A stretch of DNA of 43,779 bases from the NCBI GenBank assembly GCA_964589455.1, contig CAZPTC010000001.1, forward strand, positions 1 to 43,779, given 5' to 3'. Shown one piece after another: positions 3,278 through 7,007 of this stretch. The DNA comes from an uncultured Desulfovibrionaceae bacterium. GTDB lineage: Bacteria > Desulfobacterota > Desulfovibrionia > Desulfovibrionales > Desulfovibrionaceae. Both the position numbers and the translations under genes were made by a program. How positions within the stretch are numbered: the first letter of the stretch is position 1; every line of letters starts with the position of its first letter. Below the pieces are notes generated by a model. That model ran no database searches, was not told where the DNA came from, and worked only from the letters and a program-made list of their open reading frames with translations.

Positions 3278-4021
3278 ATGTCTGGACATAGCAAATGGGC
3301 CAATATACAGCACCGTAAAGGCCGTCAGGATATCAAACGCGGTAAGGACTTCACCAAAGCCGCCAAAGAAATTATTATTGCCGCCAAAGGCGGCGGCGAC
3401 CCAGCCGGCAACTCGCGCCTGCGCGCCGCCATTGCTGCCGCTAAAGCCGTTAACCTGCCTAAAGATAAAATTGAATCTGCCATACGCAAAGGCACTGGCC
3501 AGGAAGCTGGTGGCGATATTTTTGAAATTACCTACGAAGGGTACGGCTCCGGCGGCATAGCCATTATTGTGGAAACAGCCACGGATAATAAAAACCGCAC
3601 AGTGGCAGAAGTGCGCCATATATTCACCAAGCACGGCGGCTCCCTTGGGGAGTCTGGCTCTGTTGCCTGGATGTTTGACAAAAAAGGCGTTATCCGCCTG
3701 CCTAAAGCCCAATATCCCACAGAAGACCAGGTTATGGAGCTTGCCCTGGAGGCTGGCGCAGACGACGTGCAAGACGATGACGAAGCCTGGGAAATTCACA
3801 CCACCTTTGAAGACTTTGCAACCGTGCGCGATGCCTTGGAAAATGCAGGTGTGACAATGGAAGAAGCTTCCCTTGCCATGCTGCCTAAAACCCCTGTGCC
3901 TGTAGACGCAGACACTGGCCGCAAAGTGCTTAAACTTATGGACGCCTTGGAAGACTTTGACGACGTCCAGAATGTGTTCAGCAACTGCGACTTCCCCGAT
4001 GATTTAATGGCAGAAATGTAA
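3278..4021 (+). CDS. yebC: YebC/PmpR family DNA-binding transcriptional regulator
   Basis: [19 protein letters not shown]-terminus is diagnostic; 247 aa. Confidence 0.92.
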
Positions 4022-4034
4022 AAACAGGAAGAGT

Positions 4035-4059
4035 TTTGGGGGAAATAATTTCCCCCAAA
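4035..4059. repeat. G5/C5 palindromic hairpin (TTTGGGGGAAAT-A-ATTTCCCCCAAA), one member of a recurring intergenic family
   Basis: Perfect 12-nt arms immediately after the yebC stop. Related copies lie at 9286-9305, 23935-23957, 23966-23986 and 24005-24023. Confidence 0.7.
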
Positions 4060-4215
4060 CCCCCTTGTATAAACTTGTACTGCTTGCAAAACACAAAACT
4101 GCCCCGACCACACCACAGAAAATAATGCCCTTGTGCGCTTGTTAGAACCGCGCTATTTTTCCGCTACCTCCTTAAAACTGGACAGCGCGAAATCTAACCC
4201 CGCAAGGAGGATGGT

Positions 4216-4296
4216 ATGTATACGCATATCATGCGTGCCGCTATTGTGGTAGCAATTATCCTTCTGTGCTTGTTGCTGAAAAGCAGTAGTCACTAG
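4216..4296 (+). CDS. 26-aa hydrophobic peptide, copy 1 (candidate type I toxin / small membrane protein)
   Basis: AAGGAGG at 4204-4210, then ATG 5 nt downstream. Product is MYTHIMRAAIVVAIILLCLLLKSSSH. A terminator hairpin follows 17 nt after the stop. The ORF is intact in both repeat copies with only conservative changes. Confidence 0.5.
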   Translation: MYTHIMRAAIVVAIILLCLLLKSSSH

Positions 4297-4312
4297 AATA
4301 TAGGTAATGGTT

Positions 4313-4352
4313 GACCCCGGTAGTGGTTGCACACTGCCGGGGTCCTTTTATT
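4313..4352 (+). terminator. Intrinsic terminator of small ORF copy 1
   Basis: GACCCCGG-T-AGTG ... CACT-G-CCGGGGTC stem followed by CTTTTATT. Confidence 0.7.
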
Positions 4353-4443
4353 AAAACCTTTAACCGGGTTTTAAGGAGAAGGGGTTCGCGCGGGGGGCAG
4401 GGTGTAACAAGCACCTTGCCCCTGTCCTTTTCCTCATAGGCAT

Positions 4444-4472
4444 AAAATAAAATGCTTTAAAAAACCTGTCAA
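4444..4472 (-). promoter_or_regulatory. Candidate sigma-70 promoter convergent on small ORF copy 1 (possible antisense RNA)
   Basis: The minus strand reads TTGACA (4472-4467), a 17-nt spacer, then TATTTT (4449-4444). The same arrangement is present in copy 2. Confidence 0.4.
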
Positions 4473-4608
4473 GTATAACTGCTTATACTTTTAGGGCTTC
4501 GCTTTTACTGAAGAAAAAATAATAGCCGCTGCTGGCATACATGCGTTATTTTTCCGCGACCTCCTTAAAACTGGGCAGCGCGAAATCTTACCCCGCAAGG
4601 AGGATGGT

Positions 4609-4689
4609 ATGTATACGCATATCATGCGTGCCGCTATTGCGGTCATTATTATCCTTCTGTGCTTGTTGCTGAAAAGCAGTAGTCACTAG
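4609..4689 (+). CDS. 26-aa hydrophobic peptide, copy 2
   Basis: AAGGAGG at 4597-4603, ATG at 4609. Product is MYTHIMRAAIAVIIILLCLLLKSSSH. Confidence 0.5.
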   Translation: MYTHIMRAAIAVIIILLCLLLKSSSH

Positions 4690-4705
4690 AATATAGGTAA
4701 TGGTT

Positions 4706-4745
4706 GACCCCGGTAGTGGTTGCACACTGCCGGGGTCCTTTTATT
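4706..4745 (+). terminator. Intrinsic terminator of small ORF copy 2
   Basis: Identical to the hairpin plus T-run at 4313-4352. Confidence 0.7.
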
Positions 4746-4835
4746 AAAACCTTTAACCGGGTTTTAAGGAGAAGGGGTTCGCGCGGGGGGCAGGGTGCTT
4801 CAACACCTTGCCCCTGTCCTTTTCCTCATGGGCAT

Positions 4836-4864
4836 AAAATAAAGAGCTTTAAAAAACCTGTCAA
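4836..4864 (-). promoter_or_regulatory. Candidate sigma-70 promoter convergent on small ORF copy 2
   Basis: TTGACA (4864-4859), 17-nt spacer, TATTTT (4841-4836) on the minus strand. Confidence 0.4.
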
Positions 4865-4927
4865 GTATAACAACTTATACTTTTAGGGCTATCCATTTGC
4901 TCAAAGAAAATAATAGCCGCAACTACC

Positions 4928-6640
4928 CTAAAACGTAAAGCCCAGCTTTTTCATGGCCTGCATACCACCAAGGGAGTTTTGGGTTTCTATGCCGTGTTTG
5001 CGCAATATAAGCTGCGATTCGTATGCGCGTGTGCCAGAATTGCAGATAAGGGCAATGGGCTTATTGCGGGGTATTTCATCCAGCCTTTCCTGCAGTTCTT
5101 CCAAAGGAATAGCCAGCCAAGTGCCTTCATACTTATGGGCAAGGTCAAGGCCAGCGCGGCCGGGGCGCACATCCAGGAAGCAGTAGTTGTTGTGCTCACG
5201 GTTTTCAAACAGTTCCACAAACTCCAAGGGGCTGATGCTCTTATGCACGCCTGCAAGCACGTTATCCGCCACATTGGCAGCAGAGTTGATAACATCCATG
5301 GCAGAAGCAAAAGGCGGCGCGTATGCCACTTCCAGATTAGAAAGGTCTTCCAAAGTAGGCTTTGAGAATTGCAGCATGGCGGCAACCGCGTCTATACGCG
5401 CTTTAAGGGCAATGCCATCTGCGCATACGCCCTGCACACCAAGCAGGCGGCGGGTGGGTTTATCCACCACCACTTCCAAAGTCATCATGGTTTTTTCCGG
5501 GTAGAAGTGGGCGCGGTCAAGCTGCTCCATATTCACGCTTATGGCGTCAAAACCTTCGCGCTTTGCAGCGGCATGGGTAAGGCCTGTGCCAACAGCGCTC
5601 ATTTTATTCAATTTTACGCACCAGGTACCCACAACACCGGGGAAATGGGCATTGCCACCGGCAAGATTGGTGCCAATAACACGGCCTTGTCTGTTAGCCA
5701 TAGAGCCAAGGGGCAAATATACCTGCTTGCCTGTGATAAGGTTTGGCACAACGCAGCAGTCACCACCTGCAAAAATAGCAGGGTCAGAGGTGCGCATGGC
5801 AGTGTCTACCACAACGCCGCCCTTGGGGTGACATGCAAGGCCAGCGGCCTCTGCAATTTGGGAATTAGGGGCAACACCAACAGAGAAAATAACAAGATCA
5901 GCGGGAATTTGGCGCTTATCTGTAATAACTTCAGCTACGCTGTTATCCTCATTGCCTTTAAGGGCAGTTACCTTTTCGCCGGTAAGCACATTGATGCCAA
6001 GCTCTTCCAAGTCAAACTTTGCCATTTGGGCAAGCACAGGAGAAAGCTGGCCAGGGAGTATCTGGTCAAAAATTTCTATAACAGTGGTAGGTATGCTCCA
6101 CATATCTGCCAAAGCAACGGCCATTTCAAGGCCAATAAAGCCACCGCCCACAATAACGGCGCTGTTAACTTTGCGCTCTGTGCACAGTTCGTGTACAGCC
6201 TTGGCGGCTTCTAAATTGGTAACGGTAGTAACATTTTTAAGGGTATTGCCTTCAATGGGGGGCACACGAGGTGTAGCGCCTGTGGCAATAACCAGCTCAT
6301 CGTACGGTAAATCTGAACGCACACCAGAGCTAAGATTTTCTACAGTCACGGTTTTTTTATCGCGGTTAATGGCAAGGGCGCGGGTATGGGTAAGCACGTC
6401 CACGCCTTTTAGGTCGTGAAAAAATTGGGGGTCGCGCACGACATTGGCAGATGTAGCACGCAAAGCGTCCAGCTTGCCTACTTCGCCAGAAACAAAATAC
6501 GGGATGCCACAACCACCATAAGATATAAAGGAGCCTTCATCCACCATAGTAACAGTGGCGTCAGGCATAAGACGCTTGGCGCGCGCTGCTGCCTTGGGGC
6601 CAAGTGCAACACCGCCGATAATGAGAATGTTTTTGGGCAT
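4928..6640 (-). CDS. FAD-dependent pyridine nucleotide-disulfide oxidoreductase with C-terminal rhodanese domain (CoADR-RHD / persulfide-reductase-like)
   Basis: ILIIGGVALGPKAA FAD motif; SYGGCGIPYF redox-Cys motif of CoA-disulfide reductase/NADH oxidase; second GGGFIGLE dinucleotide fold; C-terminal rhodanese loop CNSGTR. Start taken at MPKNIL (6640). The track extension to 6832 has no homology logic. Confidence 0.88.
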   Translation of the reverse strand: MPKNILIIGGVALGPKAAARAKRLMPDATVTMVDEGSFISYGGCGIPYFVSGEVGKLDALRATSANVVRDPQFFHDLKGVDVLTHTRALAINRDKKTVTVENLSSGVRSDLPYDELVIATGATPRVPPIEGNTLKNVTTVTNLEAAKAVHELCTERKVNSAVIVGGGFIGLEMAVALADMWSIPTTVIEIFDQILPGQLSPVLAQMAKFDLEELGINVLTGEKVTALKGNEDNSVAEVITDKRQIPADLVIFSVGVAPNSQIAEAAGLACHPKGGVVVDTAMRTSDPAIFAGGDCCVVPNLITGKQVYLPLGSMANRQGRVIGTNLAGGNAHFPGVVGTWCVKLNKMSAVGTGLTHAAAKREGFDAISVNMEQLDRAHFYPEKTMMTLEVVVDKPTRRLLGVQGVCADGIALKARIDAVAAMLQFSKPTLEDLSNLEVAYAPPFASAMDVINSAANVADNVLAGVHKSISPLEFVELFENREHNNYCFLDVRPGRAGLDLAHKYEGTWLAIPLEELQERLDEIPRNKPIALICNSGTRAYESQLILRKHGIETQNSLGGMQAMKKLGFTF

Positions 6641-7007
6641 AAAATTCCCCTTAGCAAAAGGTGAAGAGAGGCGATTGCCTCGCAGGAGAAAAACGCGCAA
6701 TGCGTTGCATTTATACTGCATTGGAAGGACAGATAAATGCCGCGTTAAGTATAGCCTGAAAGACAGGTAAAAAGCAAGTAGGGAAGTGTGGGAAATGGCT
6801 TTTGTCGAAACTGCTGACACCACCGGTAACATGGGAAAAGGGGAAAGAGCGAAACCGTTTTATGCTGTAAAGTCAGCCATATAAAAATATGTTTTTTTAC
6901 TTTGCGCAGGCAGAGAAAATACTCTATATGTACTGGTTCAAAGTATATATGCGCCATTCTGCAGATACCTGATGCGCGCATGTTGGAACAAAAAAAGGAG
7001 CAAACCC

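Follow-up and report, generated by a model that had tools for sequence, protein, structure and literature searches.

A toxin-like small gene of an uncultured Desulfovibrionaceae bacterium with a predicted 5' anti-Shine-Dalgarno lock and a complementary segment between two terminators

We have analysed a stretch of 43,779 nucleotides from an uncultured Desulfovibrionaceae bacterium (assembly GCA_964589455.1, contig CAZPTC010000001.1; hereafter the window), in which two 393-nt units stand in tandem at 4150-4542 and 4543-4935, each with an open reading frame (ORF) for a small hydrophobic peptide. Our preferred reading, which we hold with slightly less than even confidence, is that each unit is a type I toxin-like gene whose mRNA is locked by its own 5' anti-Shine-Dalgarno (anti-SD) sequence together with a hairpin at the start codon, and that a 3' extension, found in RNA that reads through a first terminator (T1), competes for the leader. 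Our evidence comes from the comparison of two species and from thermodynamic models, and by these the unit plausibly represents a new, very narrowly distributed family among toxin-like small genes with SD-sequestering mRNAs.

The sequences usable for comparison were the two copies in the window, one homologue and three fragments (L001, L003 and L041). The homologue, L002, comes from the related metagenome-assembled genome GCA_964547565.1, whose YebC is 92% identical to that of the window, and is present there as a single copy at the equivalent place. The ORF encodes a peptide of 26 or 27 amino acids with a hydrophobic core from I5 to L21, and the homologous peptide of L002 is MLKRIMRAAIVVIIILLCLLLSSASLR. 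Since, of the differences in the core codons of window and L002, three are synonymous and one is conservative, and since the frame stays open over an 8-nt indel between them, the comparison indicates that the ORF is coding and that its product is a real hydrophobic peptide. The gene stands alone, with its own SD, its own terminators and no co-oriented gene downstream, and its small product has one predicted membrane helix. In Pfam, searched at E values up to 10, the peptide gave only a sub-threshold match to ODV-E18 (12-14 bits) and none to Hok/Gef or Fst; NCBIfam gave no match. Rfam, also at E up to 10, returned nothing relevant for the RNA of the unit; weak matches to PYLIS_5 and to miRNA families lay far under the gathering scores and were discarded.

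The peptide gene has a perfect SD, AAGGAGG at 4204-4210, which is preceded by its exact complement, CCTCCTT at 4167-4173. This had been pointed out in an initial annotation of the DNA, and both positions are exact. The annotation had also recognised a 10-mer, CTCCTTAAAA (4168-4177), as the complement of a distal SD mimic, TTTTAAGGAG (4369-4378); here the positions are right and the length is not, the match being one of 11 nt between CTCCTTAAAAC (4168-4178) and GTTTTAAGGAG (4368-4378). The mimic does lie where it had been placed, between T1 (4313-4344) and a second hairpin, T2 (4393-4423), and the counterparts given for copy 2 (4560-4566, 4597-4603 and 4762-4771) are all exact. Because the units are 96% identical (measured across their first 255 nt), the identity of the elements between copies is uninformative, and what carries weight is that all three are also kept in L002, which is another species.

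The SD mimic, A', belongs to a contiguous segment of 24 nt between T1 and T2, A'C'B', that is complementary to three blocks of the leader, A, C and B (Table 1). C' pairs as GGGGU:ACCCC and B' as UUCGCGC:GCGCGAA, the core of block B (4185-4191) being complementary to 4385-4391. Such matches are rare by chance. AAGGAGG occurs at three sites on the + strand of the 43.8-kb window, and CCTCCTT only in the two units. Upstream complementarity to the SD reaches 7 nt for the peptide gene and exceeds 6 nt for none of the 47 long ATG-initiated ORFs of the window. Of 5000 shuffles that preserved dinucleotides, 88 gave 7 or more nt of complementarity to the SD region (p about 0.02), and 9 gave 11 or more perfectly complementary nt between the 5' untranslated region (5'UTR) and the region between the terminators (p about 0.002).

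The blocks are also the conserved part of the locus. When copy 1 is compared with L002, identity is 92-100% in the functional blocks and 0-57% in the spacers between them. Identity amounts to 14/16 from the SD to the ATG, to 25/26 in the A'C'B' region (4366-4391) and to 34/35 in the arms of T2 with the CU-rich tail D, the T2 loop being 43% identical. In the stem of T1 one pair has changed in a compensatory way (GC to AU), and two pairs have changed on one side only and can still form. In the start-codon hairpin three pairs swap between wobble and Watson-Crick in L002 and stay paired although codons 2-4 differ, and a changed SD flank in L002 makes the A:SD helix 9 bp long. The AAAAC of block A is conserved though it has no partner at the window SD, which fits selection for pairing with A'. 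In a second sample of the L002-like species (L003, 1038-1045), a contig of which the 3' part is missing, block C reads ACCTCG; as ACCUCG it would retain the pair with the G of C' as G.U.

Table 1. Features of the tandem peptide units and their flanks (positions in the window).
Feature	Position (copy 1)	Strand	Copy 2	Details
Predicted promoter of the peptide mRNA	4131-4159	+		-35 TTGTGC 4131-4136, 17-nt spacer, -10 TATTTT 4154-4159; predicted start about A4166
Block A (5'-terminal anti-SD)	4167-4178	+	4560-4571	CCUCCUU + AAAAC; 13/14 in L002
Block B	4183-4193	+	4576-4586	CAGCGCGAAAU; 11/11 in L002; variable spacers on either side
Block C	4197-4202	+	4590-4595	ACCCCG; complement of GGGGU 4381-4385; 6/6 in L002
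Shine-Dalgarno (SD)	4204-4210	+	4597-4603	AAGGAGG, 5 nt ahead of ATG
Start-codon hairpin	4211-4232	+	4604-4625	9 bp, 4211-4219 with 4224-4232; present in every predicted fold
Peptide ORF	4216-4296	+	4609-4689	26 amino acids, MYTHIMRAAIVVAIILLCLLLKSSSH; copy 2 encodes MYTHIMRAAIAVIIILLCLLLKSSSH
In-ORF anti-SD-like CCUUCU (aSD2 analogue)	4260-4265	+	4653-4658	conserved in L002, yet coding sequence
Terminator T1	4313-4352	+	4706-4745	13-bp GC-rich stem 4313-4344, then CTTTTATT; whole feature with tail CUUUUAUU
Segment A'C'B'	4368-4391	+	4761-4784, identical	GUUUUAAGGAG (SD mimic), AA, GGGG, UUCGCGC
Terminator T2	4393-4423	+	4786-4815	hairpin, then GTCCTTTTCC
CU-rich tail D	4425-4433	+	about 4817-4825	CCUUUUCCU; anti-SD-like
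Promoter-like TTGACA-17-TATTTT	4444-4472	-	4836-4864	scores 10/12 in both units
yebC	3278-4021	+		upstream flank of the two peptide units
Flavin adenine dinucleotide (FAD)-oxidoreductase/rhodanese gene, convergent	4928-6640	-		downstream flank of the two peptide units

Where the mRNA begins matters for this arrangement. L001 and L002 (TTGTGC-17-TATCGT in L002) retain both the promoter-like hexamers upstream of block A and their 17-nt spacing, the spacer itself being only 53% identical, and sequence conservation with L002 starts exactly at ACCUCC, at the predicted transcription start. With transcription predicted to begin at about 4166, the anti-SD would form the first bases of the mRNA and block A its 5' end. 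The earlier proposal that the 5' element acts as an anti-SD agrees with this position and with the folding models. In RNA from 4166 that ends at or before T1, the predicted probability of A:SD pairing is 0.83-0.95 (0.84 for the T1-terminated RNA), and A:SD is within the minimum free-energy (MFE) structure of the T1-ended RNA for copy 1, copy 2 and L002 alike.

The models change once the RNA extends into the 3' segment. For RNA ending at 4380, A:A' pairing has a probability of about 1 and the SD shifts to the in-ORF CCUUCU (P about 0.85). We then enforced each state in turn in the T2-terminated RNA. The A:SD state had energies of -113.7 (copy 1) and -113.9 (copy 2) kcal/mol, the A:A' state -117.7 and -119.5 kcal/mol, and the B:B'+C:C' state -119.5 and -118.0 kcal/mol, so that both long-range states are 4-6 kcal/mol more stable than the A:SD state; B:B' pairing is present in the MFE structure. 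Because the block order is permuted in A'C'B', A:A' and B:B'+C:C' are mutually exclusive. By these energies, read-through would release the SD from the leader; between the two nearly isoenergetic long-range states the model cannot choose. For copy 2 and for the L002 RNA ending at 5098, the model leaves the SD unpaired.

The following course of events would account for these predictions. Once the SD has been transcribed, CCUCCUU of block A at the 5' end of the transcript would pair with it while the adjacent hairpin buries the AUG, and transcripts that stop at T1 would remain locked. Read-through of T1 would add A'C'B', and this segment could draw the leader away from the SD by forming either A:A' or B:B'+C:C'. 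Whether the 5' anti-SD holds the ribosome-binding site would then depend on where the RNA ends, or on later trimming of its 3' end to T1. In this scheme we infer the transcription start, the 3' ends of the RNA, the long-range state that is formed, that either state permits translation, and the toxicity of the peptide.

Several observations weigh against this scheme. The + strand promoter-like site scores 7/12, under the threshold of the promoter scan, and copy 2 has the A-rich tract and the -10 TATTTT and lacks the -35 TTGTGC found in copy 1, L001 and L002, because the duplication junction falls between the -35 and the A-rich tract with the -10. Copy 2 may therefore be weakly expressed, or expressed only via read-through. 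(The stretches compared for the copy-2 promoter were 4513-4552 and 4117-4159; a sigma-54 promoter in copy 2, TGGCAT ... TGC, was ruled out by its wrong spacing.) Block A of L002 carries an extra A without a compensating change, and the CUGG/CCGG extension of A:A' is lost there, again uncompensated. None of the 7 A:SD pairs or of the 22 long-range pairs varies among the three usable sequences; the covariation proposed as a check by the initial annotation does not occur, so that the comparative data neither back nor contradict either set of pairs. Duplex energies are no better than those of composition-matched shuffles (z = -0.5 for the leader with the 3' region, -0.4 for the leader hairpin), a consequence of base composition, the 5'UTR being rich in C and A and the 3' segment in G and U; the signal is in exactness and conservation, not in energy. 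The predicted structures of the long RNAs differ among copy 1, copy 2 and L002. In copy-1 RNAs that extend past 4380 the in-ORF CCUUCU is the best partner of the SD (P = 0.8-0.87), so that the freed SD is recaptured and read-through need not activate translation. Finally, T1 looks efficient, and read-through RNA may be rare. The distal-decoy switch of the initial annotation, in which the 5' element pairs either with the SD or with the 3' decoy, survives in part: the read-through models do move A off the SD, but A:A' ties with B:B'+C:C' in the T2-ended RNA, CCUUCU takes up the freed SD in the copy-1 models, and A' has another partner in tail D.

This other partner is part of the local structure of the 3' region. 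Tail D is able to pair with AGGAGAAGG at 4374-4382 in A', which lengthens the base of the T2 stem, and each unit then has three anti-SD-like and two SD-like elements. T1 and T2 are called as + strand terminators in both species, and on the minus strand a U tract follows neither of them. Folding of the 3' region gave -41.5 kcal/mol on the + strand and -28.8 kcal/mol on the minus strand in the window, and -39.9 and -28.0 kcal/mol, respectively, in L002; the advantage of the + strand, 12-13 kcal/mol, arises because its G.U pairs become A.C on the other strand. Two further candidates were rejected, A' as a genuine SD, since a start codon is absent 5-10 nt downstream, and a promoter within T1 that would drive a + strand small RNA (sRNA) of its own, for which the hexamers are poor in both species.

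The local structure could suffice. The lock would then consist of A:SD and the start-codon hairpin only, T2 would be a back-up terminator with its stem base extended by AAGGAGAAGG:CCUUUUCCU, and the A:A' match would be largely a by-product of independent AG-rich and CU-rich needs. This explanation agrees with the folding of the isolated 3' region, which forms one long composite hairpin with A' paired to D, and 6 of the 11 A:A' pairs are automatic once A complements AAGGAG; the unexceptional duplex energies and the zero covariation for any long-range helix are also as it would have them. We nevertheless consider it unlikely. The other 5 A:A' pairs (UAAAAC with GUUUUA) are needed by neither local role, yet they are conserved in both species; blocks B and C are conserved leader islands that match the bases right beside A'; the exact 11-mer arose in just the 9 shuffles mentioned above; and the conservation of A'C'B' goes beyond the needs of a terminator base, while the stem of T1 varies freely. 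If only the local lock is real, the unit is a case of ordinary SD sequestration.

A second explanation reads the 3' segment from the other strand, where a conserved promoter-like site, omitted from the initial annotation, would produce an RNA with the same anti-SD. This minus-strand RNA, starting at about 4437 and carrying CUUCUCCUUAAAAC, would be a convergent antitoxin sRNA with the 3' segment as its template; it would be antisense to the 3' region of the toxin mRNA, and through its anti-SD it would occlude the toxin SD in trans, over 8 bp in the window and 10 bp in L002, in the manner of par RNAII or SprA1AS. A and A' would then be alike because each gives rise to an anti-SD directed at the same SD. 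An antitoxin RNA is required in a type I system, and among the candidates for its promoter none but this one is conserved. The site scores 10/12 in both units, and its hexamers and 17-nt spacing are kept in L041 and L002 (with -10 TACTTT in L002) despite a variable spacer. The ATG at the predicted start is missing in L002, so that the RNA would be non-coding (a 25-amino-acid minus-strand ORF from 4437 was ruled out for the same reason). Opposed to these points is the folding of the region: in both species the minus strand falls short of the + strand by 12-13 kcal/mol, several G.U pairs of the + strand becoming A.C mismatches. With no minus-strand U tract after either hairpin the RNA would lack a recognisable end, in the predicted fold its anti-SD pairs with the RNA's own 5' end, and the complementarity of B' and C' to leader blocks B and C is left unexplained. 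The -10 of L002 matches at 3/6 positions and the promoter scan misses the L002 site. The promoter-like TTGACAG, moreover, doubles with U6-7 as the 3' side of a likely oxidoreductase terminator. On balance we consider this explanation improbable.

The minus-strand hairpin with its U6-7 overlaps the promoter-like site in both units (4444-4500 and 4836-4892), TTGACAG being the 3' side of the hairpin. In copy 2 and in L002 it lies just downstream of the oxidoreductase stop codon, and the version in copy 1 is a duplicated orphan; from its position, the hairpin is probably the oxidoreductase terminator. A conserved minus-strand promoter facing the 5'UTR was not found, the in-ORF TTTTCA-16-GATAAT having TACTCA (3/6) as its -35 in L002.

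The preferred reading, a locked mRNA with a competing 3' extension, can be extended to a toxin gene that is self-contained, with its own 3' extension as regulator and without a separate antitoxin gene, in which the choice between T1 and T2, or 3' trimming, decides whether the SD mimic strips off the anti-SD. We regard this extended form as decidedly unlikely. If it were true, a termination decision would be converted into a translational on/off state for a membrane peptide, by a cis-encoded 'anti-anti-SD' of a kind undescribed for type I toxins. Least likely of all, with only a slim chance in our estimate, is that 4353-4433 is released from the read-through RNA as a + strand sRNA (seed A'C'B', T2 hairpin, U-rich tail) acting in trans on both leaders, opening the SD by pairing at A and blocking the region just upstream of it by pairing at B and C: the seed-then-terminator-hairpin layout, the folding bias to the + strand, a seed conservation that tops the locus and a seed complementary to three leader blocks would suit it, but a credible + strand promoter is absent between the ORF and 4368 in both species, in the predicted folds the seed pairs with D and within a local AAAACC/GGUUUU hairpin, and cis pairing inside one molecule is the simpler reading.

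The element has a narrow distribution. The source chromosome is that of a Desulfovibrionaceae bacterium, the best named relatives of its YebC, at 74-77% identity, being from Taurinivorans, Desulfovibrio and Desulfovibrionaceae. In relatives whose YebC is 76-78% identical (L004-L007) ruvC follows directly after yebC and the element is absent, and orthologues of the oxidoreductase at 72-73% identity have different neighbours and likewise no element. The element therefore stands at a synteny break, the relatives having yebC-ruvC where the window and L002 have the element and the oxidoreductase gene. A pattern scan of genome contigs (SD, ATG, 2-4 codons, IMRAA) returned 32 stretches, of which only L028, on the contig of L002 itself, was genuine; the pattern TTTTAAGGAGNNGGGGTTCGCGC had one match in metagenomes, unrelated and in another sequence context. 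A pattern scan of viral contigs and blastn against plasmids and phages found no relatives, and phmmer, run with the peptide extended in frame to 32 amino acids against 1.84 billion representative proteins, gave one spurious match. By the pattern scans of contigs and by phmmer, relatives were thus not found beyond one Desulfovibrionaceae clade. The fragments L001 and L041, both from Logan run SRR29713737, break inside the element, at the equivalents of window positions 4193 and about 4826; such contig ends would be expected if their strain also holds the tandem repeat. A mobile element with inverted ends was ruled out by the unmirrored block order, A-B-C ... A'-C'-B', and by the single locus per genome.

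Some further observations concern the flanks and copy 1. The longest ORF of the oxidoreductase gene (4928-6832, - strand) has 634 amino acids and its homologues 569-570, so that the real start is probably the ATG at 6640 (MPKNILIIGG...). Directly after the yebC stop codon there is a perfect palindromic hairpin, TTTTGGGGGAAATAATTTCCCCCAAA (4034-4059), with a U tract on neither strand, and L002 has a hairpin of another sequence at the matching position. Copy 1 alone has a 9-nt inverted repeat, GTGCTTGTT (4266-4274, in the ORF) with AACAAGCAC (4406-4414, in the T2 loop), which is missing from copy 2 and from L002 and is probably due to chance.

A literature search found no type I toxin-antitoxin system or fold-back-regulated small toxin described for Desulfovibrionaceae. 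If the peptide is toxic, the units would add a new family to a lineage that is gut-associated and for the most part uncultured. The compact layout, with a 5'-terminal anti-SD, an SD and an SD mimic between two terminators, suits reporter tests of 3'-end control of translation.

Among known systems, tisB, zorO, dinQ and shoB of E. coli have primary transcripts that are inert through 5'UTR structure and are activated by 5' processing. The peptide mRNA resembles them in that losing its 5' end, here block A, would expose the ribosome-binding region. It differs in that those toxins have divergent trans antitoxins upstream of the toxin gene, none being evident here, and in that they are without a 3' segment complementary to the leader.

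In par (fst RNA I/RNA II of pAD1) and in SprA1/SprA1AS of Staphylococcus aureus, the SD of the toxin is held in a 5' stem-loop of RNA I, and an antitoxin converging from the 3' side blocks the start of toxin translation via a non-overlapping complementary region. This is the arrangement of the convergent antitoxin discussed above, homology having been compared by Pfam alone. In contrast to par, the peptide has no Fst-family Pfam match and T1 is not bidirectional, its U tract being found only on the + strand in both species. The DNA repeats are inverted here and not direct, so that a convergent RNA would copy the leader blocks and not complement them, and the host is a Gram-negative Desulfovibrionaceae bacterium.

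In hok/sok, known from plasmid R1 and from enterobacterial chromosomes, a 5'-terminal element can pair with either of two partners, one of which lies towards the 3' end of the mRNA, and the accessibility of the ribosome-binding site depends on which is taken (fbi/tac fold-back; Franch and Gerdes; Gultyaev et al. 1997, cited in PMC6733600). The leader blocks described here complement 4368-4391 and pair with that segment in the models of read-through RNA, all pairs being invariant. Hok, however, has about 50 amino acids and belongs to the Pfam family Hok/Gef, whose model does not match the peptide. The predicted mRNA contains no mok-like frame: a single overlapping + strand ORF exists (4133-4252, GTG start), and it starts ahead of the transcription start predicted here. 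A Sok-like antisense at the 5' end is also absent, and the 5' element here would pair with the SD directly.

Type I toxin mRNAs are described as characteristically having a primary transcript that is not translatable, with an SD:anti-SD pairing that in some cases is formed by long-distance contact between the 5' and 3' parts (PMC6733600). The aapA/IsoA systems of Helicobacter (aapA1, aapA3) share with the units described here a hydrophobic peptide of about 30 amino acids or fewer, a primary transcript made inert by SD:anti-SD pairing, here predicted by folding, and 5'-3' long-distance pairing with a dependence on the 3' end, which is likewise predicted here (PMC6733600; PMC5416894). The aSD1 (upstream), aSD2 (in the ORF) and aSD3 (3' end) of aapA3 (PMC6733600) would match block A, CCUUCU and tail D, respectively. 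The units differ from aapA/IsoA in having no sequence or Rfam relationship to them and no protein family match, and no IsoA-like antisense promoter was found opposite the 5'UTR. The likeness to hok and aapA suggested by the initial annotation is apt as to a 5' element with alternative partners and fails as to polarity, since hok and aapA are inert as full-length RNAs. In aapA activation comes from 3' trimming of the locked full-length RNA, whereas here it is the short, T1-ended RNA that is predicted to be locked, and the 3' partner is an SD mimic that would bind the anti-SD, not an anti-SD that binds the SD.

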